Source: a virus (Duplodnaviria > Caudoviricetes). Taken from it: DNA of 50,214 nucleotides. Under the pieces are notes generated by a model. It saw only the letters and a program-made list of their open reading frames with translations, was not told where the DNA came from and ran no database searches. Of the stretch, positions 5,695 to 23,376 are shown piece by piece. Position 1 is the first letter of the stretch. The number at the start of each line of letters is the position of its first letter. A program made the translations under genes and the position numbers. Location of the stretch: positions 1-50,214 of IMG/VR virus record IMGVR_UViG_3300019458_000045, one strand, 5' to 3'.

Positions 5695-6564
5695 ATGCTG
5701 CACAACAAGGCAAGGCGCATGAGGTCCATGGCCCGCCCGTCCGTCCAGGAGGACGGGACCGTGGACGTGGACGCCATTTCCTACACACAGATCGCCATGT
5801 GGCTCAGGTGCGGGGAGCAGTACCGGCAGCGGTACGTGCTGGGCAAGAAGGAGCCGCCCGCCGTGGCCATGGCCGAGGGGATCGCGCAGCACGCGGCCAT
5901 GGAGGCGGACAACCGGGAGAAGCTGGACCACGGCAAGACCCTGCCGACCAGCCAGCTTACGGCGATCTTCGCCGGTCATTTCGACAAGACCATAACGGAG
6001 TTTGAGGAGGCGTGCGACAGCCTCAAGACCACGCTGGACTGGGGCGGGGAGGACCGGGACGCCATCCTCCTGCGCGGCAAGAAGCACCTGGACAAGTTCG
6101 CCGCCGAGGTGACGGCGAAGATCGAGCCCGAGAGCGCCGAGGAGCCGTTCATCCGGGAGGTACCGGCCGGGGAGCACGGGGAGTCGTTCCGGCTTGCCGG
6201 GCAGGTGGACTTCACCACCAAGTCGCTGGTGGGGGACTACAAGGTCTCCTCCCGGGCCAAGAGCGACCGGGACATCAGGGAGGACTTGCAGTTGACGCTC
6301 TACTCCTGGGTCCGCAAGAAGCACCGGGTGCAGTTCGTTAACTTTGTGAAGGCGAAAGACCCATGGATTCAACTGATAGACCACGAGCGGACGCCGAACG
6401 ACTGGGCCTGGTCCCTGGAGGTGGTGAGCCGCGTGGTGAAGTCCATCCGGGCTGGCCACTTCCCGCTGGTCAACACGACGCAGTACATCGTCCCGCCGTG
6501 GTGGTGTTCGGCGGATCGGTGCGGGTACTGGGCGGATTGCAAGGGCAAGTACGAGAATAGGTGA
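5695..6564 (+). CDS. Cas4/AddB-like PD-(D/E)XK exonuclease
   Basis: 'ISYTQIAMWLRCGEQYRQRY', 'GQVDF...GDYK', 'QLTLY' and C-terminal C-x4-C-x5-C give a four-Cys Fe-S staple pattern. Confidence 0.85.
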   Translation: MLHNKARRMRSMARPSVQEDGTVDVDAISYTQIAMWLRCGEQYRQRYVLGKKEPPAVAMAEGIAQHAAMEADNREKLDHGKTLPTSQLTAIFAGHFDKTITEFEEACDSLKTTLDWGGEDRDAILLRGKKHLDKFAAEVTAKIEPESAEEPFIREVPAGEHGESFRLAGQVDFTTKSLVGDYKVSSRAKSDRDIREDLQLTLYSWVRKKHRVQFVNFVKAKDPWIQLIDHERTPNDWAWSLEVVSRVVKSIRAGHFPLVNTTQYIVPPWWCSADRCGYWADCKGKYENR

Positions 6565-6567
6565 GCC

Positions 6568-6918
6568 ATGGCGGTGAGCGAACTGGTCCAGGGCTTGTCC
6601 CAGGACTTCCAGCGGTGGGGGTTGGAGGCTGCTACCCGCGTGGCCTACGGGGTTGGCCAGTGGGGGATTCCTGAGGACAACGTTTGGATTGGCCAGACTG
6701 CCGATGGACGAATTGCCGGTTGACCTATCGCGTACGCTGCTGGCCGGATGCCAGGTCAGGATTTTGACGACATTCCCATGGATACAATCCGCTATTCGTA
6801 CATGCAGGTTGATGGTCCTATGGCAGGTCATGTCGTTTCCCTGCCTGAAGGAACTACGGCCAAGGACGTTCTGGCCGCCGCGAGGTTGGCTATCCGCAGG
6901 TTGAAGAGATCCTCCTAG
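6568..6918 (+). CDS. putative selenoprotein A1 (116 aa, in-frame TGA at 6721-6723, codon 52)
   Basis: Reads ...GRIAG*PIAYAAG...LPEGTTAKDVLAAARLAIRRLK. Homologous to 7772..8119 on both sides of the TGA; SECIS-like hairpin follows. Confidence 0.8.
6721..6759 (+). promoter_or_regulatory. putative bacterial SECIS element 1
   Basis: UGA, then 16 nt, then CUGGC-CGGAU-GCCAG (6740-6754). UGACCU can alternatively pair with AGGUCA (6753-6758). Confidence 0.7.
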
Positions 6919-6980
6919 AAGCGTGGGGGGGCCGTAAACGAGCCCCTTAGAACAGTAGGCACCCACGCTTCTAGGGGGAT
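6909..6980 (+). other. 19-bp RNA stem-loop (one G-U pair) with an internal hairpin
   Basis: ATCCTCCTAGAAGCGTGGG (6909-6927) pairs with CCCACGCTTCTAGGGGGAT (6962-6980). Confidence 0.7.
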
Positions 6981-7014
6981 TGCTGAGGAATTCACTCTTT
7001 AGGAGGATGGGCTA

Positions 7015-7368
7015 GTGCAAGATAACCAAGCAGCGGACAAGGCCCTCGACCTACTTAGAGACTTGGCGGGGGTGGTTGGAGGAACAGCAGAGAAACTCTG
7101 GCCGATGGCTGTGGAAGCGACGTGGGCTCGTGGCGTTACCCACCTTGTTTGTGGGACGGCAGGGGCATTGGTCTCCATTGGGGTAGTGTGCTTGGTATTC
7201 CGGCTGACGAGGAACCTGCATTCTGATGACAAGACAACGGCAAGGGCCGCATTCTTTTTCACTGGCCTTATTGGAGGCATCATTTCTTGTATAACGGGGC
7301 TTTCAATGGGGCTTCCTATGGTGTTGGCCCCCCAAGGTATGACGATCTTCAATCTTCTTGGACGCTAA
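7015..7368 (+). CDS. membrane protein with two hydrophobic segments
   Basis: AGGAGG RBS, GTG start, two TM-like stretches, lower GC than its neighbours. Confidence 0.65.
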   Translation: MQDNQAADKALDLLRDLAGVVGGTAEKLWPMAVEATWARGVTHLVCGTAGALVSIGVVCLVFRLTRNLHSDDKTTARAAFFFTGLIGGIISCITGLSMGLPMVLAPQGMTIFNLLGR

Positions 7369-7405
7369 GCTGGGGGAGTACTGTGAGGCGGAGGCGTGAC
7401 CTATA

Positions 7406-7762
7406 ATGACACACAAGTCCACCTGGAAGGCCGCCGAGAGGAAGGTCGCCAGGATCTTCAGGACCTCCCGCAGGCCATACTCGGGCGCGGCCGACAGCTA
7501 CGGCAAGGACGACATCATCCACGACAAGGCGTTCGTGGAGGTGAGGCTCCGCAAGTCGTTCCAGCCTGTTCGGTGGTGGCGCAAGGAAGTGGAGCCGGAG
7601 GCGAAAGAGGCCGGAAAGCTGCCGGTGCTGGTCCTGTTCCAGAAGGGGGACGGGCAGCCGTTCGTCCTGTGCCCGCTGGATGCCGACTATCTGCGCAATC
7701 TGTGGGAGTTGATCGGCACGCCGGACGTTATCCTAGCGAAGGACGACGAATCCTGCGGTTAG
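7406..7762 (+). CDS. Hjc-like Holliday junction resolvase (PD-(D/E)XK)
   Basis: 'WKAAERKVAR', 'RRPYSGA', 'DDII', 'VEVRLRK' follow the E..D..ExK-like layout; ends with 'LPVLVL'. Confidence 0.65.
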   Translation: MTHKSTWKAAERKVARIFRTSRRPYSGAADSYGKDDIIHDKAFVEVRLRKSFQPVRWWRKEVEPEAKEAGKLPVLVLFQKGDGQPFVLCPLDADYLRNLWELIGTPDVILAKDDESCG

Positions 7763-7771
7763 GGAGGAGAC

Positions 7772-8119
7772 ATGAGCAAGCGCGAGTTGGTGGAGGTCCT
7801 GGCGAGGTCGTTCAAGTCGTGGCGCTTGGGTGCCGCCAAGCGGGTGGTCAGTGGGGTCCTCAAGTGGGGGATTCCCCGCAACCTCGGTGAGTGGATCGGC
7901 TTGAACGTCAAGAGACGTATGTCCGGTTGACCCATCATGTACGCCGCTGGCTGGACGCCGGTTCAGGACTCCAATGACTTCCCTGACGACATTGACCGTT
8001 ACCGCTATAGCTGGGATGGGTGGGGGAACCGCGCTGGCCTGCCTGGAGGAACTACGGCCAAGGACGTGCTGACCGCCGCACGGCGGGCCGTTCGCCGGTT
8101 GAAGGAGAAGAGGAGCTGA
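7772..8119 (+). CDS. putative selenoprotein A2 (115 aa, in-frame TGA at 7928-7930, codon 53)
   Basis: GGGAGG RBS. Reads ...RRMSG*PIMYAAG...LPGGTTAKDVLTAARRAVRRLK; paralog of 6568..6918. Confidence 0.8.
7928..7966 (+). promoter_or_regulatory. putative bacterial SECIS element 2
   Basis: UGA, then 16 nt, then CUGGC-UGGAC-GCCGG (7947-7961; one U-G pair). Confidence 0.7.
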
Positions 8120-8122
8120 CCA

Positions 8123-8584
8123 ATGGCCATCGAGGAAAAGAACTGGCTTCCGTGGGACAGGTACTTCCCGGACCAGGAACTCACGGACGCGGAGAAGGAC
8201 GCCGGGTATGTTAACCTGAATACCCTGGGGTTTTCCGTCGGCCTGCTTGCGTTGTCTCACCTTGCCGATATGGCCCGGGCACAGGAGAGCGGCGGGGGCG
8301 TGGAGTCTGGCGGCATACTGACCGGGTACTCCACGGCCGGACTCATGGAGGCCATGGTGCGCTACGGATCGACCGCGGTCGAGCGCACCCTGGGCCGGGA
8401 TGAAGCCATCCGCTGGTGGAAAATGTGCGTGTTCGACAAGTTGGTCCGCGTTTTGGGTGAAAAGTACCCGGAGGTGGCCAGTCTTCATGTCTGGAAAGAC
8501 AAATCTCCTGGCGGACCCGGCGTGTCGGAAGTGCCCGCTCCACAAGACGGCGGGGACGGTTTGCATCCCAAGCCGGGGAGATAA
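8123..8584 (+). CDS. hypothetical protein
   Basis: AGGAG RBS, 153 aa; overlaps the polymerase start. Confidence 0.55.
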   Translation: MAIEEKNWLPWDRYFPDQELTDAEKDAGYVNLNTLGFSVGLLALSHLADMARAQESGGGVESGGILTGYSTAGLMEAMVRYGSTAVERTLGRDEAIRWWKMCVFDKLVRVLGEKYPEVASLHVWKDKSPGGPGVSEVPAPQDGGDGLHPKPGR

Positions 8585-10892
8585 GCGCCCCCGCATCCTG
8601 TTCGTCGGCCAGGCCCCGGGGGCGCTCGAGGACGAGACGGGCAAGTGCTTCGTCGGTCCGGCCGGACAGTTGCTCACCCGGGCCATCCGCAAGTACGTCA
8701 CCGTCCCGTACCGCCTGACGAACGCCGTCAAGTGCTTCCCTCCCGGGGACCGCAAGCCCAAGGCGGTGGAGCTGGGGTCGTGCCGGTCCTACCTGGACGC
8801 CGAGGTCCTGCACTACCGGCCGGACATCATCGTGGCCGTCGGGGACGTGCCCCTTCGTCACCTTACCGGCAAGACCGGGATCACGTCCTGGTCTGGCCGC
8901 GTGGCCGGTACCCTCAAGTTCGAGTCGGGGGACACCGAGTCGGGCGTGCCCCCCTACGAGCCCCGGGTGTTCGCGCTGATCCATCCCGCCTTCGTGCTCC
9001 GGGCCCCCGGCAACCTACCCAAGTTCGAGGCCGGGATGCGGGAACTGAACAGGCTGGCCGTGGGCGGGCCAAGCGGCAACCAAGCGCCGGTCTCCGAGGT
9101 GGACCAGGAAGGCTTCTGCAACTTCTTCCTGGCTGCCGGACACGCCGGGAAAATCATCGCCTTCGACTACGAGACGAACGGACATCCGTGGTGGTCCGGC
9201 GGCAAGCTGCGGTGCGTGTCCCTGTCGGATGGGACGTCCGCCGTCTGGATGGACGTGGAAAAGCACGGCAAGGCCGCGCTCCAAGCCCTGTTGCTGTTCC
9301 TGGACAGCCTGTTCCCAAAGGCCGCCCACAACATTTCGTTCGAGACCAACTGGTCCCGGGCGTTGTTCAGCCGGGAGCCCCGGCGTCTCAAGTGGGATAC
9401 GATGCTCCTCCACTACCTGTGGAACGAAAACTCCCACCACAACCTGGAATCGGTGGCCGGGGAGGTGTTGGGCGCGTCCCCCTGGGACATCCACCTGGAA
9501 ATGAAGGGCCGCAAGTGGACGTGGGATACGGTCCCCATGGAGGTCTTAGGTCCGTACAACGCCATGGACTCCTACTGGACGGCGAGGCTTGCGGGCGTCC
9601 TGCCTGAGAGGCTGTCTCCCAACCACTTGAAACTGTACAGGCGGCACATCATCAAGCAGGCCCGGGTATGCGCCCGCATGGAGTGGAACGGAATCCGCCT
9701 GGACCCCACCTGGGCCGAATGTGCGGACAAGTACCATGAGAAGGCGATGTCGGCCATCGAGTCCGAGATCCGCGCCCATCCCAAGGTCACGGCCGTTCAG
9801 AAGAAACTGAAAGACGTCACGTTCAACCTGCGATCCGCCTACCACATGAGGGCGCTGGTGTACGATCACCTGCGGATGCCCGTGTTCGAGCGCACCCCCG
9901 GGGGCTTGCCGTCCACGGCCGAGGAGGTACTGGACCGCCTCAAGGGCCGGTCCCCGCTTCTCGGCCGCATCATGGCGTGGCGGGAGACCGAGACCGTGCG
10001 CCGCAGGTACTTGCAGAAGTTCCCCGCCTACGCGCATACGGACGGCATCGTGCGCCCCGGGTACAACCCGGCCCGGATCGTCCCCGGCCGGATCGCCGTG
10101 ACGGACCCGCCGATGCAGACTCTCCCCACGTCCGCCGTCGTCCGGGGCATGGTCGTCTCGCGGTGGACCGGCGGCAAGATCCTGTCCGCCGACTACAAGC
10201 AGCTTGAGATCCGGCTGGTGGCCAACGAGTCCGGCGACGGCAAGTTGATCCGTTCCATAGCGGTTGGGGAGGACCAGCACGACAAGACCGCAAGTGAAAT
10301 CTTCGGTGGCAAGTTCACCAAGGATGATCGGCTGATCGCCAAGCGCATCAACTTCGGCATCGTCTACGGAATATCGCCATACAGCCTGGCCGCCCAGTTC
10401 AACATGACGGTGGACCGGGCCGAGGACATCTTCCGCCGGTTCCGAAAGGCCCGTCCGATGATTTTCCAGTGGATGGCCCGACAGCACGCCTTCATCGAGA
10501 AGCACGGATACATCAAGTCCCGGTTCGGCCGCAAGCGTCGGCTCCCTGAGATCCGCCACGCGGACGAGAAGCTGAAGGCCCGAATCTTCCGCCAGGCCGG
10601 GAACTTCCCCATCCAGTCCGCCGGGGCGGACATCACCAACCTGGCCATGATCCTGGTGGACCGGGAGCTGCGCAGGAGAAAGCTGAAGTCCCTGCTCGTC
10701 CTGCAAGTCCACGACTCCCTGCTGGTGGACCTGCACCCGGACGAGGTTAACGTGGTGCCCGATCTCGTCGTTAACCTTATGACCAAACAAGTTCAACGGC
10801 TCTGTCCCTGGATGCGCGTGAAGCTGGAAGTGGACGTGTCCGTGGAGGACCGATGGGGAGGCGCGACGAATGTGGGCGAGGCGGCTGCTTGA
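8487..10892 (+). CDS. polA: family A DNA polymerase with N-terminal family-4 uracil-DNA glycosylase-like domain and 3'-5' exonuclease
   Basis: UDG4: CRKCPL, VGQAPG, FVGPAGQLL, TNAVKC, HPAFVLR. Exo: AFDYET, AHNISFE, YNAMD. Pol motifs: A SADYKQLEIR, B RLIAKRINFGIVYG, C QVHDS. Confidence 0.95.
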   Translation: MSGKTNLLADPACRKCPLHKTAGTVCIPSRGDKRPRILFVGQAPGALEDETGKCFVGPAGQLLTRAIRKYVTVPYRLTNAVKCFPPGDRKPKAVELGSCRSYLDAEVLHYRPDIIVAVGDVPLRHLTGKTGITSWSGRVAGTLKFESGDTESGVPPYEPRVFALIHPAFVLRAPGNLPKFEAGMRELNRLAVGGPSGNQAPVSEVDQEGFCNFFLAAGHAGKIIAFDYETNGHPWWSGGKLRCVSLSDGTSAVWMDVEKHGKAALQALLLFLDSLFPKAAHNISFETNWSRALFSREPRRLKWDTMLLHYLWNENSHHNLESVAGEVLGASPWDIHLEMKGRKWTWDTVPMEVLGPYNAMDSYWTARLAGVLPERLSPNHLKLYRRHIIKQARVCARMEWNGIRLDPTWAECADKYHEKAMSAIESEIRAHPKVTAVQKKLKDVTFNLRSAYHMRALVYDHLRMPVFERTPGGLPSTAEEVLDRLKGRSPLLGRIMAWRETETVRRRYLQKFPAYAHTDGIVRPGYNPARIVPGRIAVTDPPMQTLPTSAVVRGMVVSRWTGGKILSADYKQLEIRLVANESGDGKLIRSIAVGEDQHDKTASEIFGGKFTKDDRLIAKRINFGIVYGISPYSLAAQFNMTVDRAEDIFRRFRKARPMIFQWMARQHAFIEKHGYIKSRFGRKRRLPEIRHADEKLKARIFRQAGNFPIQSAGADITNLAMILVDRELRRRKLKSLLVLQVHDSLLVDLHPDEVNVVPDLVVNLMTKQVQRLCPWMRVKLEVDVSVEDRWGGATNVGEAAA

Positions 10893-11070
10893 CGCGGAGG
10901 CGTTCCCCATCGACATCGAGGGCCGGGACAAGGAACCGGCCAGGTGCCGGTGGTGCAAGAAGCAGCAGTACGGGTTCGTCCGGCTGTTCCTCGTGACACA
11001 CTTGATGAGGGCCGAATACGTGGAGTGTACAAGATGTCGTCAGCGGTTGGGCAAGGAGGTCGTCGAGTGA
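10870..11070 (+). CDS. small Zn-finger protein
   Basis: CRWC...CTRC; GGAGG upstream. Confidence 0.5.
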   Translation: MWARRLLDAEAFPIDIEGRDKEPARCRWCKKQQYGFVRLFLVTHLMRAEYVECTRCRQRLGKEVVE

Positions 11071-11279
11071 GGATCAAGTATTCCGTAGGGCGCACCGTGA
11101 ACATCGGGAATTTCGAGTCGCTGAGGTTCGATGTCGGCGCGGAACGCACGCCGGACGCGGGCCAGGACCCGCTGGATGTCTACGACGAACTCAAGCGGTG
11201 GTGTGATACCAGGATGGACGTGTTGACGGCTCCGTTTGACGGCGGGGCCAAGAAGAACAGAAAGAAAGGAGCGAAGTGA
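11067..11279 (+). CDS. conserved phage protein (TVNIGNFES motif)
   Basis: AAGGAGG RBS and GTGA overlap. This motif is commonly seen next to phage SSB genes. Confidence 0.65.
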   Translation: MRIKYSVGRTVNIGNFESLRFDVGAERTPDAGQDPLDVYDELKRWCDTRMDVLTAPFDGGAKKNRKKGAK

Positions 11280-11953
11280 TGGGACTGGACCTGGACAAGA
11301 TCCGCAAGCGTCAGGCCGACGACCGCGCCCGCCGGGGCGGACGGTTCAAGCTGGCCGACGGCAAGAACCGCATCCGCATCCTCAAGTTCAAGCACAAGGT
11401 CACCAAGGAGGACGTGGCGGCCAAGCTGTACGAGAAGGGCGAACTGGGGACCGTGGTCGAGGAGATCGACCGCCCTATCAGCATCCACTGGACCGGCAAG
11501 AACAACTCCCCGGTCCTGTCCACGCCGAAGCTGGTGGCCGAGTACGAGAAGTACGCCCAGTCCGGCAAGGCCAAGGACCTGGCGTACGCCAACAAGATCG
11601 GCCCCCGGTCGGTGTCGCTGGTGAACCTCGTGGACACGAACGAGCGCCCGTACCGCGTCCGACAGACCATGCTGCCCAAGTCCGTCATCGACGACGTGTG
11701 GGCGAAGGTGCTTGATGAGGACTACGGCGAGGGCGTCCTCGGTGTCAGGGGCCGGGACTTCACGGTAGTCAAGAACCCCAAGGCCAAGGCCCCCAAGGAC
11801 TACTACAAGACGGACGTCCGGGACAAGGACGCCTGCGCGGCCCTGCCCGCCAAACTGGAGAAGGACGTCGCGGACCTGTACCGTCAGGACGTCCTGGTCA
11901 AGGTGGGGCTGGTCCCCAAGGACGGGGGCGACGACTCCGGGGAGGAGGAGTAG
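11276..11953 (+). CDS. single-stranded DNA-binding protein (gp32-like)
   Basis: 'RFKLADGKNRIRIL', 'GRDFTVVK', acidic tail (DDSGEEE), replication context. Confidence 0.7.
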   Translation: MMGLDLDKIRKRQADDRARRGGRFKLADGKNRIRILKFKHKVTKEDVAAKLYEKGELGTVVEEIDRPISIHWTGKNNSPVLSTPKLVAEYEKYAQSGKAKDLAYANKIGPRSVSLVNLVDTNERPYRVRQTMLPKSVIDDVWAKVLDEDYGEGVLGVRGRDFTVVKNPKAKAPKDYYKTDVRDKDACAALPAKLEKDVADLYRQDVLVKVGLVPKDGGDDSGEEE

Positions 11954-11954
11954 C

Positions 11955-12263
11955 ATGGACAAACTGCACGCCCTCGGGGATCAGGTCATCATCGAGCCGG
12001 ACGCCGGGGAGAAGGAGTCCCCCGGCGGCATCCTGATCCCGGAGTCGGCACAGAAGCGCGGCGGCAAGCCGCTGCGGGGCCGTATCGTGGCCGTGGGGCC
12101 GGGCAAGCGCCACACGGACGGCAGGGTGTACCCAGTGTCCGTACGGGTGGGGTGGTCGGTCATCTACTCCAAGTACGATGGCTACGAGTTCACCCACGAG
12201 CGCAAGGACTACAAGGTCGTGCCGGAGTCGGGGGTCCTGGTGGTCGTCGAAGAGACCAGGTGA
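11955..12263 (+). CDS. groES: co-chaperonin GroES
   Basis: 'LHALGDQVII', 'SPGGILIPESAQ', 'GRIVAVGPGK', 'VRVGWSVIYSKYDG'. Confidence 0.92.
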   Translation: MDKLHALGDQVIIEPDAGEKESPGGILIPESAQKRGGKPLRGRIVAVGPGKRHTDGRVYPVSVRVGWSVIYSKYDGYEFTHERKDYKVVPESGVLVVVEETR

Positions 12264-12334
12264 TGTCCGCCGGGCCGGGCTACTGCTGGCGGCCACGCCG
12301 CCCCGTAGCCCGGCCCACTTCCAGGAGGTGGCCC

Positions 12335-12457
12335 GTGAACGACGAGCAAGCCCGGATGGCCCGGTTCATCATCTACGCCTTCATTCTCGGGTTCGGCGTC
12401 CTGTTCATGACGCTGTTCCTGCACGCGGCGTACCGGACGCTGATGTTGTATACGTGA
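12335..12457 (+). CDS. small single-TM protein
   Basis: AGGAGGTG RBS before GTG; hydrophobic stretch FIIYAFILGFGVLFMTLFL. Confidence 0.55.
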   Translation: MNDEQARMARFIIYAFILGFGVLFMTLFLHAAYRTLMLYT

Positions 12458-12465
12458 GGTGAACC

Positions 12466-12723
12466 ATGCCCTACATCAAGCCGCAGGATCGCACGGAGGG
12501 AGCGCGTCTGCACCCCTGCAACATTGGTGCGCTGAACTACGCCATTACCACGCTGATCGACGACTACCTTTCCTCCAAGGGCCTGCAGTACAGCGAGGTG
12601 AACGCCGTCATCGGGGCCCTGGAGTGCGCCAAGCTGGAACTTTACCGCAGGGTCGCGGCTCCCTACGAGGACCACAAGATCTATGAAAACGGCGACGTCT
12701 ATTCGCCTGGAAACCTCGTATGA
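12466..12723 (+). CDS. DUF6899-like conserved phage protein
   Basis: 'MPYI', 'GALNYAIT', '[28 protein letters not shown]'. Confidence 0.75.
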
Positions 12724-13999
12724 CTTCGACGTTCCCTTCCAGCGCAACCTACTGGCGGCGGCCTGGAACGACCGGGACTTCCTCGCCAAGGCCGAGGAGT
12801 GCCTGCGGCCCGACTACTTCACGGACGAGGTGCTGGCGGGAGTAGCCCGCGCCCTGCTCCACCTGTGGTCGGCCCACCGGACGCTGCCGGACCTGCCCGC
12901 CGTCCTTGAGCGGGTCCGCGAGGAGGTCGCCCCCGGCCGCAAGTACGGCGAGTATGAGAAGGAAGTCAAGCGCGTATGGAGCCAGCGTGGAACCAACACC
13001 GAATACTACCGCGAGCGGGCCGTTGAGTTCGCCAGACGACAGGCTGTCGCGGATGCTGTACTCGCTGCTGACGGCCTCATGGCTGACGGGAAACTTGACT
13101 CGATTGAGCCTCTCCTTCGCCGGGCTCTCGCCACCGGGGGTGGGCTCGCTGGCCAGTCGTACAATCACCTTGAGGAAGCTGATGCCCGGCTTGCGCTGTA
13201 CGTTCAGCGCGACGGCGCACGATCCCGAGACGAACGGCGAGTACCTTGCGGAATTGGTCCTATTGATGCCGCCACGCAGGGCGGCCTCGGAAAGGGGGAA
13301 CTCGGATGCGTCGTAGGGCTGGCCGGAAAGGGCAAGACTACGTGTCTTATCAACCACGGGGCGAACGTCCTGATGGGGGGTCGGAACGTCCTGCACGTCA
13401 CCCTGGAGAACTCCCTGGAGGTGACGGCGGCGCGGTACGACGCCCGGCTGTTCGGCCGGTCGATGGCCAGGATCAAGAAGTTCCCGGCCAAGTTCCAGAA
13501 GCACATGGCGAAGCTGCGGGAGGATTTGACTTCCCGGCTGCTGATACGCTACTACCCGACTGGGATGCTTACGGCTTCGACCTTGGAGGTGGAGATTGAG
13601 CGGGCTTCACCTAGGCCGGACGTGGTGTTCGTGGACTATGCGGCCCTCATGCGAACAGCGGGTGCTGCTGGAGGTCGTGATGGGCTGCGGTTCGAACTGG
13701 CTGATACGTTTCGGGATCTACGCCGGGTCAGCGGCATTACGTCTGCACCTATATGGACGGCACATCAGGCGAACCGCCCGGGGGTGGGCGCTGAAAAGCT
13801 CGGTATGGTACATCTGTCCGAGTGTTTCGAGATTGCTGGCATCGTTGATGTGGGCCTTTCGATAAACTGGGACGACGACAAGCCCGCCGAGGTGTCGATG
13901 TATGTCTGGAAGAACCGGCTGGGTAAGGGCGATTTCGAGGTTCCCTGTTCTGTCAACTGGGAGACCAGCATCATTTCCTCTTACAGCGACGAGGTGTAG
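12683..13999 (+). CDS. DnaB-like replicative helicase
   Basis: Walker A GLAGKGKT, 'LHVTLEN', 'VFVDYA', 'WTAHQANR', 'KNRLG'. Confidence 0.92.
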
Positions 14000-14500
14000 A
14001 TGAGCGATCAAGACACTGCTGGGAATTACCAGGAACTCCCCGTGCCTTCCGATTTGCCTCTCCCCCCAGGGGACCCCGTTGACAACCCAATGACTCCACT
14101 GGACCCTTATCTTTTCCGGGACCAATACACCCCAGTGGTAGGAGTCCCCGAGGAGTCCACCGTCGTCATCCGGCACAAGCCGGACGGCGGCTACAAGCTG
14201 GACCAGGACAAGCAGCGGTGGGACTTGCTGCCCATCCGCCCCATGCGGAAGGTCGTGGACGTGTACACCCGGGGCTCCAAGAAGTACGCGGATCGCAACT
14301 GGGAAAACGGCATGAAGTGGAGCCGGGTGTACGGGGCGCTGCTCCGGCACGTCACCGCCTTCTGGAACGGCGAGAGCATCGACGAGGAAGGTGGCCAGCA
14401 CCACTTGGCCAGCGTCGTATTCTCAGCCCTGGCCCTCATGCAGTACGAGGAGGACTTCCCCGACCTGGACGACAGGCCAAGGAAGCCGGGGGTGAAGTGA
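14000..14500 (+). CDS. dATP/dGTP diphosphohydrolase domain protein (DUF5664)
   Basis: 'GYKLDQDKQRWDLLP', 'GSKKYADRNWENG', 'ALLRH', 'GESIDEEGGQHHLA'. Confidence 0.85.
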   Translation: MSDQDTAGNYQELPVPSDLPLPPGDPVDNPMTPLDPYLFRDQYTPVVGVPEESTVVIRHKPDGGYKLDQDKQRWDLLPIRPMRKVVDVYTRGSKKYADRNWENGMKWSRVYGALLRHVTAFWNGESIDEEGGQHHLASVVFSALALMQYEEDFPDLDDRPRKPGVK

Positions 14501-14919
14501 TGGACGAGGCATACAGCCCGCTCAAGGTGTACATCGCCAGCCGGTTCCCCGACCGGGACGACTGTCTGTACCTTAAGGGGCAACTGGAAGCCCGAGGCTA
14601 TCAAGTCACCTCGACGTGGCTCACCCCGGCGGACGGCAACTCCGCGAACATGGCGACCCTGCGCGGCAAGCACGTTGAGTGCCGACAGCGGGCTATCAAG
14701 GACATCGAGGACATCAAGGCGGCCGATGTCGTCGTCCTGATGTCGCCCAAGAAGGCCCACAGGAACGGCACAGGCGGGCGTCACGTCGAGTGCGGCATCT
14801 CCATCGCCCTGGGCAAGCCCATCATCCTCGTTGGGGAGCGGGAGAACGTGTTCCACTATCACCCCCTGGTGCGGGTCGTCGGGGACGAAATGGGCGTATA
14901 CGGGGCGCTAGGAGCTTGA
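14500..14919 (+). CDS. nucleoside 2-deoxyribosyltransferase-like / nucleotide hydrolase
   Basis: 'KVYIAS', 'DIEDIKAADVVV', 'GGRHVECGISIALGKPIILVG'. Confidence 0.75.
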   Translation: MDEAYSPLKVYIASRFPDRDDCLYLKGQLEARGYQVTSTWLTPADGNSANMATLRGKHVECRQRAIKDIEDIKAADVVVLMSPKKAHRNGTGGRHVECGISIALGKPIILVGERENVFHYHPLVRVVGDEMGVYGALGA

Positions 14920-15878
14920 GCCTGTCCCTGCTGTCGGCCCTCACGTCCAAGCTCGGGGAGTACGACTCCAACCCTGTCCGAGACGACGGGGAGTACGAGT
15001 TCGTATGTCCCAGGTGCCCCAAGCAGGACGGCAAGCGCAAGCTGGGGGTCAACGTCTCCCGCAAGGTGTTCAACTGCTTCCGGTGCGGGTGGCGCGGGCG
15101 GCTGGTCGATCTCTTGCGGGCCCTGGGTATCAACCCGCTTTCCCTCGGCCCCGACCTGGGCATACGCCCGGTGGCCGCCTCGGACACCTACGGCCCGAAG
15201 GTGCGGCCGGACCAGATTCCCGGCTATACCCCTCTGCCGGAGCCGGACCAGCCCATGAGCCGGATAGAGCAGGTGGCGTACGACTACTGCCGGGAGCGCG
15301 GCCTGGACGACGTGGGCGAGGTCACGTCCCTTCGCCTGGGAACGTCCACGGAGAAGGACCTTGCCGGGCGGCTGGTGATCCCGGTGTTCGAGGACGGCCG
15401 CATGGCGGGGTACTTCGCCCGGTCCCTGTTCGACTACCTTGAACCCAAGGACAAGGTTGGGCCGGAGTACCTGGGCTGGGCCCCCAAGGGAGAGTTGGCG
15501 TACGGCCTGGACCTGATGCGGCCCGGCCACGTCCTCGTCCTGGTCGAGGGGTTTTGGGATTGGGTGCGGGTGCGGAAGGTATCGCGGTCCCTGGATTCGT
15601 TGGCGCTGCTTGGGTCCAACCTCGGGCCCGTGGCGGCGGGCAAGATCCTGGCCCGGCGGCCCGGCCGCATCGTCGTCATGCTGGACGGCGACGAGGCTGG
15701 GGAGCGCGGCACCCGCAAGATCGTGTCTGAGCTGCTGGTCCACCGGAAGTTCGCCTCCGTCCACGTCGCCCGTCCCCCAGTGGGCAAGGACCCCGACGAG
15801 TTGACGGCGGGCACGATCCTCGCCCTGGTGAACGAGGCCATACCCGCCGTCAACTGGCTTATCAAGCACGGGCGGTAG
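14916..15878 (+). CDS. DNA primase (Zn finger + TOPRIM)
   Basis: CPRC...FNCFRCG, 'RLVIPV', 'LVEGFWD', 'LDGDEAG', 'KDPDE'. The TTG start is inferred from the overlap. Confidence 0.9.
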   Translation: MSLSLLSALTSKLGEYDSNPVRDDGEYEFVCPRCPKQDGKRKLGVNVSRKVFNCFRCGWRGRLVDLLRALGINPLSLGPDLGIRPVAASDTYGPKVRPDQIPGYTPLPEPDQPMSRIEQVAYDYCRERGLDDVGEVTSLRLGTSTEKDLAGRLVIPVFEDGRMAGYFARSLFDYLEPKDKVGPEYLGWAPKGELAYGLDLMRPGHVLVLVEGFWDWVRVRKVSRSLDSLALLGSNLGPVAAGKILARRPGRIVVMLDGDEAGERGTRKIVSELLVHRKFASVHVARPPVGKDPDELTAGTILALVNEAIPAVNWLIKHGR

Positions 15879-16164
15879 GTTCGCTGAACAGGTGGGCCGG
15901 GAACCTGAATCGGAAGGGCTTGGTGGGGAAATCCATGCCGACGTCCGTGATAGCCTAGGTTTGGATCTTGACCATACGTTTCGGCCAGGGATAGTTCAGG
16001 AGACCCTCTTCTCCATACACCATTGCGGACTTGACCTGAACACTGTGGCACTTGACTCCTGCGTCCAGCAGGGCTAGGGCCACAGGTCACTGCTCGGTGT
16101 TTCTCAACTGGGACCGTCCCCTCTTCAAGTGATCCTCGGTCACCGGGACGTAACGGTACTTCAT
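15862..16164 (-). CDS. putative selenoprotein B1 (TGA codon 26 at 16089-16087; also in-frame TAG codon 70 at 15957-15955)
   Basis: AAGGAGG RBS. Reads MKYRYVPVTEDHLKRGRSQLRNTEQ*PVALALLDAG...KIQT*AITDVGMDFPTKPFRFRF...; the TGA aligns with Cys in CPVALAI of 23084..23365. Confidence 0.7.
16052..16089 (-). promoter_or_regulatory. putative bacterial SECIS element 3
   Basis: UGA, then 14 nt, then CCUGC-UGGAC-GCAGG (16072-16058), a perfect 5-bp stem, followed by AGUCA which can pair with UGAC. Confidence 0.7.
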
Positions 16165-16178
16165 GGCTGCCTCCTTTC

Positions 16179-16463
16179 CTAGACGGTAGCTCCAACCAAC
16201 CCCTTGCACGTCGTCCTCGTATGCAACTGGGACGATACCGCCCCCCCGCTCACCGGCTGCTGGATTGTCTGCTGACAGTGGAGGCACGTCCAGCCCGTGC
16301 CGCTCCTCCACTCAGCCGGATACCGCAGGTCGGCCGCATCTGACACCCGGGATAGACGATTCGCCTCCCCTGACAAGGATGCCAGCGCCCTCCCGCGCTT
16401 GCGGGCGCGTTCCACCGCCCGGTTCCTTGGGCGGTCCCGTTCGACACGTTTCAAGTAGCTCAT
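16179..16463 (-). CDS. hypothetical protein with CxxC...H...C Zn site
   Basis: GGAGG RBS; 'WTCLHC...HTRTTC'. Confidence 0.55.
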   Translation of the reverse strand: MSYLKRVERDRPRNRAVERARKRGRALASLSGEANRLSRVSDAADLRYPAEWRSGTGWTCLHCQQTIQQPVSGGAVSSQLHTRTTCKGLVGATV

Positions 16464-16471
16464 TAGTCCTC

Positions 16472-17047
<576 letters not shown>

Positions 17048-17066
17048 ATTGGCCTCCTTCAGTACG

Positions 17067-17531
17067 TTAACGCGCCAGCCCGCGAATAGTTGCCTCGATT
17101 GTCGCCCACCGCCGGGAAATCTGCGGGGCGGTCACTCCCAGCTTCTCCGCGATGTCGCACTGTCGGTACCCTTTCCGGGCCCATGCCAGCACTTCCCGAT
17201 CCTTCGGCCCCAGCCGGGCGCTAACCTCGTCCAGGAAGATACGGGCCGTCTCGTCCCGCCCCGGGGCGTGAAGGGACCGTGCCTCGTTGATCGGCCGTTC
17301 CCCGTCCGCCAACCTCTTGGTGCGCCGGATAGCGTCCGTAGACACGTTGACGAAGGCCCGGGACGCTATCTTGCGGAACTCGCCCCACGTCCTGCCTGGG
17401 TACTTCACGGACAGCCGCCATACCAGGGTTGTCATGTCCGCTACGGCCGCCTCAACGTCCCCGGGGCGCATCCGTCGGGCGACGTGGTACATGAGCGGGC
17501 GCAGACGGACTACCGCCTCCTCGAGGTTCAC
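17067..17531 (-). CDS. sigma-70 family (ECF-like) sigma factor
   Basis: Region 2-like 'GEFRKIASRAFVNVSTDAIRR' and region 4 HTH 'GYRQCDIAEKLGVTAPQISRR'. GTG start after GGGAGGA. Confidence 0.7.
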   Translation of the reverse strand: MNLEEAVVRLRPLMYHVARRMRPGDVEAAVADMTTLVWRLSVKYPGRTWGEFRKIASRAFVNVSTDAIRRTKRLADGERPINEARSLHAPGRDETARIFLDEVSARLGPKDREVLAWARKGYRQCDIAEKLGVTAPQISRRWATIEATIRGLAR

Positions 17532-17756
17532 TCCTCCCGCTCCGTCCGTGGCGCCCACCGTGGAGTATGCCCGTAGTGCCGCTCCCGGTCGAGCATCCGA
17601 AGGATGTCCTGAAGCTCCCGCGCCAGTTTGCGCGACGGCAGCGGGACTCCCATCCGCCGATAGGCTCGGCGGTGCCTCATGAGTGTTTGCCACTTTGACC
17701 CCCGTTTCCTAATCGGGAAACTGATACCATGACTACAGGCGCTACACCGCACGGGC

Positions 17757-18149
17757 CTACGCCCGGCAATCGCAAAGATCGGAGAAGTACACCGGGTCGA
17801 ACAGGCTCCCCACTTGGCGGTCCCGCCACGGGTCCCCGGGGCGGTGGAGCCCTTCCTGGGACAGCCGTATTTCCGCCCCGGTTGGAAGCGCATCGAAAAA
17901 CGTCCCGTGAACGTGCCAACAAGCGGCGGATGTCCGCCTGCGCTCTCCGCTCTTGACGCGGTGTAATCCGTGCTGCGCTCCCGGGCCGCGACGGTCCAGG
18001 ACTCGCAGGCGGACATTGTGCTTCTCGCTCCCGCCCCTTGTGTAACCGGCGGGGCGACAGAACAAGAATTGCACGTTGCCGCCGTAGTGTTCGTTGACGA
18101 TGTTCAGGGCGGCCTGAAGGTCTTCATACGACGCGTTGCGAACCAGCAT
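17757..18149 (-). CDS. hypothetical phage protein
   Basis: 130 aa, AGGGG RBS, 'AACWHVHGTFFDAL', ends CDC. Confidence 0.65.
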   Translation of the reverse strand: MLVRNASYEDLQAALNIVNEHYGGNVQFLFCRPAGYTRGGSEKHNVRLRVLDRRGPGAQHGLHRVKSGERRRTSAACWHVHGTFFDALPTGAEIRLSQEGLHRPGDPWRDRQVGSLFDPVYFSDLCDCRA

Positions 18150-18159
18150 GGCTATCCCC

Positions 18160-18861
18160 TTAAAGGGTGAATTCCTCCGCTTCCCCGCGTGTCAGGAAGA
18201 AATGAATCCCGCCCGCGCACTCGATCCACTTATCTGGTTCCCACTTGTGGGCCTTGACCATTTCCCCGGCCCGGTAGGCTGTTACCGCGTCCCGCAGGCT
18301 ATACCCAACATCCGCCCCGATAACGTCCAGGACGCGGACATGAGACGCTCGGCACTTTCGCCCCGTTGCGTTGGAGCGGGCCGCGTCGGCCGGGATTTCC
18401 AGTTTGACGATGACTTCTTTCTCGCCGCCCGGTTCCGCCTTACACTTTTTCCAACCGATGAAGGCCCCCTCCGGGGGCGTGATTTCAGTGGCTGGGAGGT
18501 CCGCCCCCTGGAGGTTCGCCCCCCGGAGGTTCGCCCCCCGGAGGTTCGCCCCCTGGAGGTCCGCCCCCTGGAGGTCCGCCCTCTGGAGGTACGCCCACTG
18601 GAGGTTCGCCCCCCGGAGGTCCGCCCTCTGGAGGTCCGCCCCCCGGAGGTCCGCCCCCTGGAGGTCCGCCCCCTGGAGGTCCGCCCCCTGGAGGTTCGCC
18701 CTCTGGAGGTCCGCCCCCCGGAGGTTCGCCCCATGGAGGTTCGCCCTCTGGAGGTACGCCCCCCGGAGGTTCGCCCCCCGGAGGTCCGCCCCGCCTGCTA
18801 CTGCGGTGGCCACGGATTCCCACTCCCCGATTGTCGAGCCGTCCAAGCGCTTGATCAGCAT
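18160..18861 (-). CDS. pentapeptide repeat protein with DUF5758-like C-terminus
   Basis: About 20 A(D/N)L(R/Q)(G/R) units, then 'FIGWKK', 'KLEIPADA.RSNATGRKCRAS', 'ECAGGIHFFLTR.EA'. Confidence 0.9.
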   Translation of the reverse strand: MLIKRLDGSTIGEWESVATAVAGGADLRGANLRGAYLQRANLHGANLRGADLQRANLQGADLQGADLQGADLRGADLQRADLRGANLQWAYLQRADLQGADLQGANLRGANLRGANLQGADLPATEITPPEGAFIGWKKCKAEPGGEKEVIVKLEIPADAARSNATGRKCRASHVRVLDVIGADVGYSLRDAVTAYRAGEMVKAHKWEPDKWIECAGGIHFFLTRGEAEEFTL

Positions 18862-18882
18862 ATATCCTCCGCTTCCCTAGTG

Positions 18883-19065
18883 TTATCTGTGACAGTATCC
18901 CGCCTCGATCAACCGAACGGCCATCCGGCCATAGCTTCCCTGTAGCGTCCAGGCGAGCCCAGTGTCGATCAAATGCTGGAACAGCCGGACGATTTCCGCT
19001 TCGTCTAGCTCTCCCTGCTCATACCGGATGATTGCGTCCACGTCATCGTATTGTGTGTTCTTCAT
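18883..19065 (-). CDS. conserved small phage protein
   Basis: '[10 protein letters not shown]...[26 protein letters not shown]'; GGAGG RBS. Confidence 0.75.
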
Positions 19066-19136
19066 GGACTGTCCTCCGCAATTACCATGCCATACGAATC
19101 CTCGATTTCCACGCGGGATTCCATGTTCGACCCGAC

Positions 19137-19178
19137 AAATTTCGTCATTGTGACGGGAATTGTCAACAATTTGTGTCA
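19137..19178 (-). promoter_or_regulatory. early promoter/operator copy 1
   Basis: Minus strand AAATTG-TTGACA-ATT; plus strand GTGACG-GGAAT-TGTCAA (19150-19166). Confidence 0.55.
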
Positions 19179-19179
19179 C

Positions 19180-19491
19180 CTATCCCCATATGAATCCCGT
19201 ATCCGGCCGGAACGTCGCCCGGTACGGCGAGTACCTGCGTCCGCCCCCGTCCCGTCGATTGCAGGGACCGCATAGCGGCCGTAGGTTCCCGGCCTTCCAG
19301 TCCCGGATGTACCGCGTCATCCTGGACCAGCGCGAGAGCCGGGCCGGATCATAGTCCCGGCCGTTCGGATGATCGAATTGCAAGTCCTTGCGCGTCTTGC
19401 ACTCGGCGCACCGTCCGCCCATAACGCGGAACAGCTCTTTACGCTTGGCCTTAGCCCAACGTACCAACCGGGCGGATTTGGATTCCTGCAC
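19180..19491 (-). CDS. HNH endonuclease
   Basis: 'GGRCAEC...LQFDH...NLRPLCGPCN'; GTG start inferred. Confidence 0.75.
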   Translation of the reverse strand: MQESKSARLVRWAKAKRKELFRVMGGRCAECKTRKDLQFDHPNGRDYDPARLSRWSRMTRYIRDWKAGNLRPLCGPCNRRDGGGRRYSPYRATFRPDTGFIWG

Positions 19492-19501
19492 GTTGCTCTC
19501 C

Positions 19502-19699
19502 CTAATCCGTAGTGCCGAATTCCGGGCAATCGGGATACTCAGGCTCCGGCTCCCGGGGAACGTCAAGCTCGCAAGCGTAACAGATCCCCCGGTTATCCCG
19601 GTAGCATCCGCCGCACAAGTACACGTCGGCGTCGTGCCGGTCCATGTAGGCGCAAGAGAAGCTTGCGCCGGAACAGCCGCAGTTTACACAAGCGTACAT
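19502..19699 (-). CDS. small Cys-rich (Zn-binding) protein
   Basis: CVNC, CGGC and CYAC motifs. Confidence 0.55.
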   Translation of the reverse strand: MYACVNCGCSGASFSCAYMDRHDADVYLCGGCYRDNRGICYACELDVPREPEPEYPDCPEFGTTD

Positions 19700-19950
19700 G
19701 GGTTGCTTCCTTCCTGATATAGTACCGCGTCTTGGTCGAATTCGTTGCGAAGGCAGGCTGCCAGATCCCCGACGGCTTCCCCGCTCACTTCGATGATCCA
19801 GGTTTCCTCCCGCCTGCCTTGCCAGTACCCGATAGCGGGAATCAACGTGAATCCAAGGACACCGTAGTTAGCAAGGGCCCGGGCGAGAGCACCTTCGGGG
19901 ATGCGCGCCCCGTTCCTTGCATTGTCGCCACCTAGATAGATCCGGCTCAT
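19684..19950 (-). CDS. SAM lyase-like (T3 SAMase / DUF3574-type fold) protein
   Basis: 'GFTLIPAIGYWQGRREETWIIEV ... LAACLRNEFDQDAVL' pattern. Confidence 0.6.
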   Translation of the reverse strand: MSRIYLGGDNARNGARIPEGALARALANYGVLGFTLIPAIGYWQGRREETWIIEVSGEAVGDLAACLRNEFDQDAVLYQEGSNPCTLV

Positions 19951-19997
19951 ACCGCTAATCCTCGGGATGCGCCCCGGTCGGGGCGCATTGACGGGGA

Positions 19998-20204
19998 CTA
20001 GCAAACCTTGGTGATTCGCCCGTCCCGGACCGTTACTTGAGCATACCACTTGCGGACCGTGGGCGACGGCCCAACGACGGGGTACGTCCCGTCGCCCCGG
20101 TACTCCGGGCCAAACAGGGACGTTTCCAGGAATACCCGGCCCGCGTCACGGCCGACGAATCCGCGGAGATCCTTCTTGGTGCGGGCACCGTAAACGGACA
20201 TCAT
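19998..20204 (-). CDS. conserved small phage protein
   Basis: GGGGAGG RBS; 'TKKDL...ETSLFGPEY.GDG...RKWYAQVTV.DG.I.KV'. Confidence 0.7.
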   Translation of the reverse strand: MMSVYGARTKKDLRGFVGRDAGRVFLETSLFGPEYRGDGTYPVVGPSPTVRKWYAQVTVRDGRITKVC

Positions 20205-20294
20205 GGGTCTAACCTCCCCTCGCCACTATTGGCGCTATCAGTCTAGCAATCCCCTTGCCAACCGGAAACGCTCCGGCCGCCCAGGAATTGCAGT

Positions 20295-20672
20295 TTACCA
20301 CGGCCGAAATTTGTCATAGCGCCACGAATTGTCAACAATCTGCGTAATCCGTCCGCCTCGACCGTTCAACGCTCCTTCGAACAGGCAAGCGTAATGCGGC
20401 CCCCAACGTAGGGCGATCAGTCGGAAGTAGACGGCCGCATAGTCCGGCCCGTGATGGGCGAACCGGGGCGCTAGTACGTGGGCTACTTCATGCAGTACCA
20501 TTTTCTCGAATCGGGCCCACTTGGGTACCGTGATGTACCGACGTAGCGCACTACCCCCAGCCCTACGGCGGCCCCGGCCGTCCGCTACCGCTATGGGTCT
20601 ATTCTGTCCTGGGAAGGCTCTCCGGAACGCAGGGGACGATTGCAGGGACCGCACAATTGTGCCTACCTGCAC
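20295..20672 (-). CDS. HEXXH Zn metallopeptidase-like (SprT-like) protein
   Basis: 'MVLHEVAHVL....HHGPDYAAVY'. Confidence 0.65.
   Translation of the reverse strand: MQVGTIVRSLQSSPAFRRAFPGQNRPIAVADGRGRRRAGGSALRRYITVPKWARFEKMVLHEVAHVLAPRFAHHGPDYAAVYFRLIALRWGPHYACLFEGALNGRGGRITQIVDNSWRYDKFRPW
20306..20345 (-). promoter_or_regulatory. early promoter/operator copy 2
   Basis: Minus strand AGATTG-TTGACA-ATTCGTGGCGCTATGACAAATTT, closely matching copy 1. Confidence 0.55.
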
Positions 20673-21142
20673 TTCCGTCCCGCTCGGGAAACGGCCGTTA
20701 CCCGGAGACTAGGATACCCGTATCTCCATGCCGCATAGGGTAGCGGTGCGCTCGGTAGGTTGGAATCGTAGATGTCATTGTCCAGGAACGCTACGGCGTG
20801 GGCCGCTACCACGTAAACTGGACTGAGGAAAGCAAACATCAAGACACCGCGTCCGCTAAGGTTAGGGTCATCTGTAGATATGACAGTCCGTCCTAGTACG
20901 TCCTGGATTGCGTCCCCTACCTGTTGATTGTGGCGCTCCCATGCTCGATAGGCCCACGGCGTCAATTCGGCCACGGCACGGAACGGCCCCGGGTTAGATA
21001 GATCATAGTATCCATGCGGCCGTAGGGCACGGTCGTACTCCGCGAGCAGGGGTTCGGCGTCCGCAGGCTCGAATCCTTCCGCTTGCAGGATGGCGGCCAG
21101 TAGACATATCGGCCGCCCGTGCTGCTGTAGATGGGTCACCAT
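20663..21142 (-). CDS. hypothetical protein
   Basis: GGGAGG RBS before the ATG at 21142; overlaps the next gene. Confidence 0.55.
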   Translation of the reverse strand: MVTHLQQHGRPICLLAAILQAEGFEPADAEPLLAEYDRALRPHGYYDLSNPGPFRAVAELTPWAYRAWERHNQQVGDAIQDVLGRTVISTDDPNLSGRGVLMFAFLSPVYVVAAHAVAFLDNDIYDSNLPSAPLPYAAWRYGYPSLRVTAVSRAGRKCR

Positions 21143-21397
21143 AGCTGCTATCCTCCCGTGCCGTCGAACGTTTCCCATCCGGCGTCCGGATTGCCGTCCA
21201 GCGCCGCTATCACGCGGTTCGGGTCCAGGTAGGATAGGTCCCGTTCCTGGTCCCGGAGCGTATCGCCCGGGGCGCTAGTGGTCAGGCCCATGCGGGCACC
21301 TACACCTTCCGCCCGAACACATAGCGGACACTCCAGCAAGTCCTGTGCCGTGCCGGAACAGCCTAGATTCGCGGGAATCGCGGTTCCAAACTGGGAA

Positions 21398-21444
21398 GTG
21401 ACAAAAACTGTCAACAATTTGCGGAAGGTGACAGGAATTGTCAC
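21398..21444. promoter_or_regulatory. tandem GTGACA-N5-TGTCAM operators overlapping a minus-strand TTGACA
   Basis: GTGACA-AAAAC-TGTCAA (21398-21414) and GTGACA-GGAAT-TGTCAC (21428-21444), between divergent genes. Confidence 0.6.
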
Positions 21445-21537
21445 GTGGAAACCGCGAAATTTGCGGAATTTGGGCTGGCATGGGGATTGCGGGAAGGTCA
21501 GGGTGGAAAGAATGGGGGATGGATGATGGAGGAAGCC

Positions 21538-22972: not shown

Positions 22973-22980
22973 TGGACCTG

Positions 22981-23365: not shown

Positions 23366-23376
23366 GAGATCAACCC

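Follow-up and report, generated by a model that had tools for sequence, protein, structure and literature searches.

Can a bacteriophage gene use UGA to encode selenocysteine (Sec)? The question is raised by a viral genome of 50,214 nucleotides (nt), the IMG/VR record IMGVR_UViG_3300019458_000045 (hereafter the window, meaning the whole stretch of DNA analysed), in which three small accessory genes are interrupted by a UGA codon with a YGGAY-loop hairpin a short distance downstream. Two of these genes are paralogs (family A, sites A1 and A2), and the third is a divergent member of phrog_19191 (family B, site B). The UGAs are in frame, are kept between old paralogs, are flanked by constrained coding sequence, align with an invariant Cys and have hairpins downstream. 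With a probability that we put at about 60%, the three are phage selenoprotein genes of the bacterial type, decoded by the host SelB and tRNA-Sec, and we are more confident of this in family A than in family B.

In-frame UGA codons at an invariant cysteine column

Both family A genes lie on the plus strand. Copy 1 (6568-6918) comprises 116 codons and a TAG stop, with the UGA (6721-6723) as codon 52, while copy 2 (7772-8119) comprises 115 codons and a TGA stop, with the UGA (7928-7930) as codon 53. The ATG is preceded in both copies by a Shine-Dalgarno-like sequence, AGGTGA in copy 1 and GGGAGGAG in copy 2. The products are 54% identical over the whole length, in both halves, and the alignment places the two UGAs in one shared column. 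Nei-Gojobori estimates for the portions before and after the UGA gave a synonymous divergence (dS) of 1.12 and 1.17, which is near saturation, and a ratio of nonsynonymous to synonymous divergence (dN/dS) of 0.41 and 0.32. Neither a frameshift nor a further stop is present downstream of the UGA in either copy. The dN/dS of 0.32 downstream at a dS of about 1.1 therefore indicates that the post-UGA frame is translated, that the duplication is old and that the UGA has long been kept. The seven codons next to the UGA (P-I-x-Y-A-A-G) differ between the copies by two synonymous changes and one replacement, and this segment matches the motif behind the Cys in family A relatives.

A profile search with family A, covering 1.84 billion representative proteins, retrieved nine: the two N-terminal halves from the window itself, four full-length relatives of 107-175 residues and three long multi-stretch proteins of 430-1404 residues. 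Cys stands at the UGA column, within C-P-I-x-Y-A-(A/T)-G, in 4/4 of the full-length relatives, a count that leaves out the three long proteins; in one relative, P0015, two extra residues separate the Cys and the Pro. The public protein collection holds family A only as N-terminal halves of 52 and 51 residues, cut by gene callers. No match to the family A proteins was obtained among cultured phages (tblastn), single sequences returned nothing in a word-index protein search or, as proteins, in viral contigs, and the relative P0009 gave no usable match in the ESM Atlas. In the AlphaFold model of family A, a confident one with a predicted local distance difference test (pLDDT) score of 84.7, C52 directly precedes helix H53-57. 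Fold searches with this model yielded nothing outstanding (best Foldseek E value 1.4 in PDB and 0.39 in BFVD; VIA Z 4.6, root-mean-square deviation 3.8, 86 residues aligned).

The family B gene (15955-16164, minus strand) starts with the ATG at 16164, behind GGAAAGGAGG; its UGA (16089-16087) is codon 26, and the first non-UGA stop is a TAG at 15957-15955. The frame continues past this TAG on the same strand (15862-15954) and ends with a TGA at 15864-15862, the C-terminal K-P-F-x-F family motif being still there. The match of family B to phrog_19191 (E value 8.8e-6 over residues 7-63) runs across the UGA, and after reading through one TGA and one TAG it spans profile positions 3-82 (E value 2.2e-5). 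Relatives number 1614 proteins at an E value <= 0.001. Cys occupies the UGA column in 120/120 of the best of these 1614, as well as in a second phrog_19191 gene of the window, and its context is C-P-(I/V)-A-L-A. This Cys-form paralog (23084-23365, plus strand; phrog_19191 E value 1.1e-12, match at 23096-23344 with one TAG inside) has TGC at the UGA column and an in-frame TAG at 23192-23194; it is without the hairpin and served as an internal control.

The paralog matches 24 Gordonia phage records in the cultured-phage tblastn search; the family B protein itself had no match there, and the word-index protein and viral-contig searches with it were empty. In the likewise confident AlphaFold model of a family B relative (pLDDT 91.2) C21 directly precedes helix H22-29, and the fold search again gave nothing outstanding (best Foldseek E value 1.6; VIA Z 2.5, root-mean-square deviation 2.2, 44 residues aligned). 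Pfam has no family for A, B or their relatives, and a sequence search of PDB with both families gave nothing below an E value of 0.25. A common origin of families A and B was considered and rejected, the hhalign probability being 4.6% and only a 15-column CP[IV]A stretch aligning.

Both phrog_19191 genes hold an in-frame TAG, and the family homology goes on in frame behind each. The two TAGs lie within CCTAGG, a sequence with three copies in the window, and 6 of the 571 TAGs on both strands share this context. Both would arise from a C-to-T change in C-CAG-G, which may have been their origin, and both may be read through.

The UGA sites are not an assembly error, because a second assembly of the sole public DNA run containing the sequence, a cave metagenome that is probably its source, reproduces all three. 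The second assembly stems from the same sample and is not independent biology; over 6000-24000 its sole mismatch is at position 10083 (A vs. C in the window), inside the DNA polymerase gene. A run search turned up no RNA sequencing runs carrying the phage sequence.

Hairpins downstream of the UGA codons

We scanned both strands of the window for a TGA followed by a YGGAY pentaloop closed by at least five pairs (G-U allowed) and situated 10-30 nt from the T of the TGA. Five matches were found, including the three sites of the original prediction (+6721, +7928 and -16089). The remaining two, +41811 (distance 13) and -43921 (distance 18), lie outside the 22-24 nt range; according to frame arithmetic, 41811 is out of frame within its gene and 43921 is antisense to a gene. 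The A1 hairpin (6740-6754, plus strand) is formed by CUGGC (6740-6744) and GCCAG (6750-6754) around the loop CGGAU (6745-6749) and is followed by GUCA (6755-6758). The A2 hairpin (7946-7962, plus strand) consists of CUGGC (7947-7951), the loop UGGAC (7952-7956) and GCCGG (7957-7961), with a flanking G and U that make a sixth pair, G-U, possible; UUCA occupies 7962-7965. On the minus strand, the apical part of the site B hairpin comprises CCUGC (16072-16068), the loop UGGAC (16067-16063) and GCAGG (16062-16058), then A and GUCA, within an extended hairpin at 16039-16088.

The scan thus confirmed several features claimed for all three sites in the original prediction, namely CC directly 3′ of the UGA, a stem of 5 base pairs (bp), the YGGAY loop and a 3′ arm starting with GC. 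The loop offsets from the UGA were also as described (21 nt in A1 and A2, 19 nt in B), with a different codon phase in family B. The (G/U)UCA said to follow each hairpin adjoins it in A1 and A2, but in site B it lies one base further than claimed. The UGA region, to which it was said to pair back, is paired in the minimum-energy folds of A1 and B but not in that of A2.

The chance frequency of the motif, for which the prediction had proposed a check, was estimated by dinucleotide-shuffling the window 300 times. With the loop placed 22-24 nt from the T, the motif was observed three times, vs. a shuffle mean of 0.21 and a maximum of 2, so that three were reached in 0/300 shuffles; with CC added to the requirement, the shuffle mean fell to 0.01. 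These figures flatter the motif, which was defined from the same three sites, and A1 and A2 are paralogous, leaving 2 independent events rather than 3. A covariance model trained on the three sites, also proposed earlier, was run on the window and recovered its training sites, but nothing else beyond a next match of 18 bits that is not at a TGA. This best non-training match falls in an open reading frame (ORF) at 20295-20672 (minus strand), with no TGA there; the ORF encodes a HExxH motif (HEVAH) and a stretch N-R-P-I-A-V-A-D-G resembling C/U-P-I-A. The site B hairpin was also considered as a transcription terminator, and this was rejected, with no terminator-like site in 15500-16700.

Bacterial Sec insertion sequence (SECIS) elements, as modelled in a 2026 review of prokaryotic selenoproteomes (PMC13188914), have a loop of 3-9 nt, an upper stem of 4-16 bp, a G within the first two loop positions (mostly N-G-(G/U)-N-N), a UGA-to-loop spacing of 16-37 nt and an energy <= -7.5 kcal/mol. 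In loop size, G position and spacing, all three sites agree with this model (CGGAU, UGGAC and UGGAC closed by 5, 6 and 5 pairs in A1, A2 and B, at the offsets given above). The bare A1 hairpin has an energy of -6.0 kcal/mol with its 5 canonical pairs, or -7.0 if a sixth, G.G mismatch is counted as paired, and an alternative register reaches -8.3; the values are -7.9 kcal/mol for A2 with 6 pairs, and -6.6 for B with 5 pairs, or -7.6 when a sixth, C.A mismatch is counted as paired. Of the 1163 TGAs in the window, 100 (8.6%) have an ungapped hairpin in agreement with the model, including its energy limit of <= -7.5 kcal/mol. Cys-form family B genes, four from Gordonia phages and the paralog in the window, were examined for comparison. 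Past the Cys codon, a YGGAY hairpin or a model-fitting hairpin better than -3.5 kcal/mol was present in 0/5 of them vs. 3/3 of the UGA genes, although in three of the four Gordonia genes this region looks rich in A+T, and that alone reduces the hairpin potential.

Decoding of the UGA codons and competing explanations

According to the selenoprotein reading, the ribosome would meet an in-frame UGA in each gene, and the hairpin, which begins several codons further on and presents its apical loop at a distance of 19-21 nt, would recruit the host SelB with Sec-tRNA(Sec), thereby allowing Sec to be inserted where the relatives have Cys. We infer that the inserted residue is Sec and that the hairpins, as candidate SECIS elements, bind SelB. 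The shared YGGAY loop would then reflect a preference of the host SelB rather than protein motifs and chance. In both predicted folds, Sec would open the conserved (Cys/Sec)-Pro-(Ile/Val)-Ala stretch and stand immediately before the first alpha-helix residue. As had been noted from the letters alone, the phage is without sel genes: no selA, selB, selD or tRNA-Sec was found in the 50,214-nt record, and ARAGORN detected 0 tRNA genes of any kind. Because of this, the full-length proteins would be made only in a Sec-decoding host with selenium, and otherwise fragments of 51, 52 and 25 residues would result. The possible selenium switch of the original prediction would, on this reading, follow from any Sec codon.

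The prototype bacterial genes with a SECIS inside the ORF are E. coli fdhF and fdnG. The phage genes resemble such selenoprotein genes in having an in-frame UGA at a Cys position and a hairpin directly downstream inside the coding sequence, and the hairpins resemble bacterial SECIS elements in their small apical loop with G-G at positions 2-3, in a spacing that falls well inside the 16-37 nt range, and in the ability of the UGA region to pair into the hairpin base in A1 and B. Unlike the bacterial genes, they are phage-borne, in a genome without sel genes, and find no match in Rfam; their products form two small families, each having one invariant Cys, with Pro behind it, and no recognisable redox enzyme or CxxC/UxxC motif. 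Among eukaryotic viruses, poxviruses have selenoproteins that are homologues of glutathione peroxidase. These too are viral UGA-Sec genes wholly reliant on the host Sec machinery, but they are homologues of host enzymes and use a eukaryotic SECIS in the 3′ untranslated region, whereas here phage-specific proteins are combined with hairpins of the bacterial kind, located inside the ORF. Stop-codon-reassigned phages, which use TGA or TAG as sense codons in late genes and often have suppressor tRNAs, likewise possess in-frame stops that need read-through. In contrast to them, the present phage has three such UGAs only, each with a hairpin and at a Cys column, its ordinary genes end with TGA, TAG and TAA alike, and it has no tRNA gene.

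A full-text literature search, judged from abstracts and not covering supplementary lists of selenoprotein families, gave no report of a bacteriophage selenoprotein, and the phrases ‘phage selenoprotein’ and ‘phage-encoded selenoprotein’ occurred in no paper of the literature searched. The words phage, virus and viral are absent from the 2026 review (PMC13188914). In the literature searched, Sec is described for cells and a few eukaryotic viruses, not for bacteriophages. If the selenoprotein reading is true, phages can exploit the host Sec machinery, and automatic gene prediction systematically breaks such genes apart. For two families, the single invariant Cys-Pro found where a helix begins would then be a strong hint of a chemically active Cys, and a Sec-dependent phage gene would narrow the candidate hosts to Sec-decoding bacteria, thus aiding host prediction.

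A number of observations weigh against this reading or restrict it. The bare-hairpin energies (ungapped YGGAY hairpins) are borderline at the model threshold of -7.5 kcal/mol, and, compared with shuffles, the 55-nt folds of A1 (-12.6 kcal/mol, z 0.15) and A2 (-11.6 kcal/mol, z 0.58) are thermodynamically ordinary; that of B reaches -24.6 kcal/mol (z -2.6; 4/200 shuffles as stable) and represents a strong extended hairpin of 50 nt. Rfam has no family for the three sites at an E value <= 10, its 3 weak matches in the window being elsewhere and unrelated. The original statement that protein constraint cannot explain the consensus was too strong, since protein motifs shared with the Cys relatives prescribe a large part of it. 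Indeed, UGA-CC is the U-P of the conserved Cys-Pro dipeptide, which is present in all family B relatives and in the family A relatives except P0015. The family A loop, UGG-AC, codes for W-T and is partly shared by three of the four Cys relatives (GWTP, GWSP, GGTP; the fourth has GWKR), while the A-G...P-G/V residues fix 3 of the 5 stem pairs in this family. When the sites were re-encoded with synonymous codons drawn from the phage codon usage, a YGGAY hairpin stayed in place in 220 (A1), 355 (A2) and 178 (B) of 2000 trials each (11%, 18% and 9%). The folding energy was not below that of the re-encodings for A1 and A2 (fractions 0.80 and 0.50) and was marginally below for B (0.064; 6.4% fold as well).

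The comparative data are also limited. The synonymous dip in the 12 post-UGA codons of family A (3/9 sites vs. about 24/36) is not significant (Fisher p 0.13). For family A, a degenerate DNA pattern (W-G ... C/U-P-I-x-Y-A-x-G) gave 0 matches in viral contigs and 10 chance matches in metagenome contigs, and of the 28 degenerate-pattern matches for family B in viral contigs 0 were real; relatives can escape such scans, which demand exact degenerate motifs. The UGA form is conserved only between the two family A paralogs of the phage, with no second UGA-form genome in the pattern scans. In family B the TAG sits within an insertion absent from 120/120 relatives, and behind it the protein is altered at positions that are 94-100% conserved (a conserved F, F-D and V are changed). 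The gene may thus be partly degraded, perhaps truncated or decaying, and its UGA could be a nonsense mutation; this possible decay lowers our confidence that the family B UGA is functional. Finally, the searches for relatives of the phage, for an fdh pattern and for phrog_19191 in genomes (see below) named no host in which selA, selB, selC and selD could be looked up.

The same data bear on how far the RNA consensus reaches. The UGAs could be Sec codons and the YGGAY loop nonetheless a by-product of protein motifs (C/U-P, A-G-W-T-P and A-L-A-L-x-D-A-G), high G+C content and chance, and thus no host fingerprint; we regard this as a serious, if tentative, possibility. It would account for the retention of the motif upon re-encoding and for the GWTP, GWSP or GGTP at the loop of the family A Cys relatives, and it fits the protein of Gordonia phage Keelan, whose CPVALALNDAG is close to the UPVALALLDAG of family B. 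The small number of independent events, the after-the-fact definition of the motif and the lack of further covariance matches in the window point the same way. What it does not readily explain is that three motifs were found where 0.21 were expected, each at a UGA already singled out by protein homology, and that comparable folding is missing from all five Cys-form genes. Moreover, a Leu is needed for the loop of family B at a position where the 14 relatives shown vary (N, K, R, L, V), and this residue may have been selected for the RNA, although it is a single case. The three sites very probably represent bacterial SECIS-type recoding, each UGA occupying an invariant Cys column in frame and having a hairpin behind it, but the consensus at the RNA level is less far-reaching than the original prediction had it. 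A still bolder view, to which we attach very little weight, is that Sec is inserted at the three UGAs via hairpins converged on a GC-YGGAY-GC loop preferred by the host SelB and that both UAGs are read through as well (for example as pyrrolysine or by a suppressor). Through these genes the phage would sense the identity or the physiological state of its host (selenium supply, decoding capacity), and the loop would be a marker for host prediction.

Other explanations dispense with Sec altogether. The genes might be broken or decaying, with the UGAs (from TGC) and the TAGs as true stops and truncated peptides as the only products. The in-frame TAG in family B and in its paralog, the loss of conserved C-terminal residues in family B and the lack of another UGA-form genome in the pattern scans would agree with this, but we consider it unlikely, since family A keeps its UGA in two copies at a dS of about 1.1 with purifying selection and an intact frame downstream. 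In addition, both independent UGAs hit the sole invariant Cys of their family, with a model-fitting hairpin at each vs. 8.6% of TGAs generally. Slightly less probable still is a read-through without Sec, either by near-cognate insertion of Trp, Cys or Arg at a leaky UGA-C or by SelB-like delivery of Cys. UGA-C is a weak termination context and is found at all three sites, tRNAs of SelB-like systems delivering Cys have been described, and the A1 and A2 hairpins are weak; yet the invariant Cys column makes Trp or Arg a poor substitute, with little read-through, most of the translation of these genes, which are under purifying selection, would be futile, and in loop and spacing the hairpins agree with the SECIS model. 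It is very improbable that each family A locus is a pair of small genes, an upstream one of 51-52 residues and a downstream one of about 56-60 residues with its own start. In-frame ATGs do occur past the UGA (6748 in A1, 7937 in A2), but at the non-equivalent codons 9 and 3; P-I-x-Y-A-A-G would remain untranslated in A1 and yet evolves like coding sequence, and each of the Cys relatives is one protein, 107-175 residues long, that covers both halves. As to a reassigned code with TGA as a sense codon throughout the phage or its host, for which the existence of stop-codon-reassigned phages is the precedent, we find it hardly credible. The code is not reassigned as a whole, because TGA ends 24 of the 76 predicted genes (TAG 35, TAA 17; the gene prediction was trained with one interval in the wrong frame, and some doubtful short ORFs are counted). 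No large conserved gene has an in-frame TGA, and tRNA genes are lacking; a genome-wide screen for in-frame stops between coding flanks brought no further TGA case, which is a weak argument, as this screen also missed the three known sites.

Host and genome of the phage

Searches for a host that could supply the Sec machinery used several routes. No close relatives of the phage were found in phage, viral-contig and genome collections. The portal protein matched one 5.5-kb contig at 64% identity, the DNA polymerase had no relative, and the terminase had none in genome contigs. Among cultured viruses, the large terminase (27266-28714, plus strand) has its best matches in the Methanothermobacter phages psiM2 and psiM100 (43.6% identity, E value 2e-98), followed by actinobacteriophages of Brevibacterium and Gordonia at 35-38%. 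The sigma-factor-like gene of the phage suggests a bacterial host. Apart from the terminase, the genome looks bacterial, with this gene, DnaB and PolA.

Genome contigs were searched with a pattern anchored on fdh (U-H-G-P codons and, at the proper distance, C-YGGAY-G); among the matches listed (at least 120) 0 had an FdhA-like context, and, the genome-wide chance rate being high, these are chance matches only. phrog_19191 was found in 0/5 bacterial genomes and then in 0/401 and 0/401 genomes of two phyla. Sec machinery is present in about 40% of 244 Mycobacterium genomes, according to a 2026 preprint (10.64898/2026.03.03.709296). High-G+C aerobic Sec-decoding hosts therefore exist, which is background and not evidence for the host of this phage.

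The record has a CheckV completeness of 100% and a G+C content of ~63%. It encodes a replication module (exonuclease, family A DNA polymerase, single-stranded DNA-binding protein, DnaB-like helicase and primase), as well as RNA ligase, large terminase, portal, head and neck genes. None of the ORFs for polymerase, helicase, primase, terminase and portal is interrupted. A minus-strand block holds a gene for a pentapeptide-repeat protein with a C-terminal DUF5758 (18160-18861; Pfam E values 1.5e-40 and 3.1e-25) and the adjoining sigma-factor-like gene (17067-17693). The last ORF (47221-50214, plus strand) has 998 codons and an open 3′ end; if the record is circular, it meets a stop at base 58 (region 1-60), and this run-off suggests a complete, circularly permuted genome. 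TAG, as the commonest predicted stop (35/76), is unusual at 63% G+C. The TAG trinucleotide is itself rare (210 plus-strand occurrences), and there are fewer copies of CTAG than expected (41 vs. 64).

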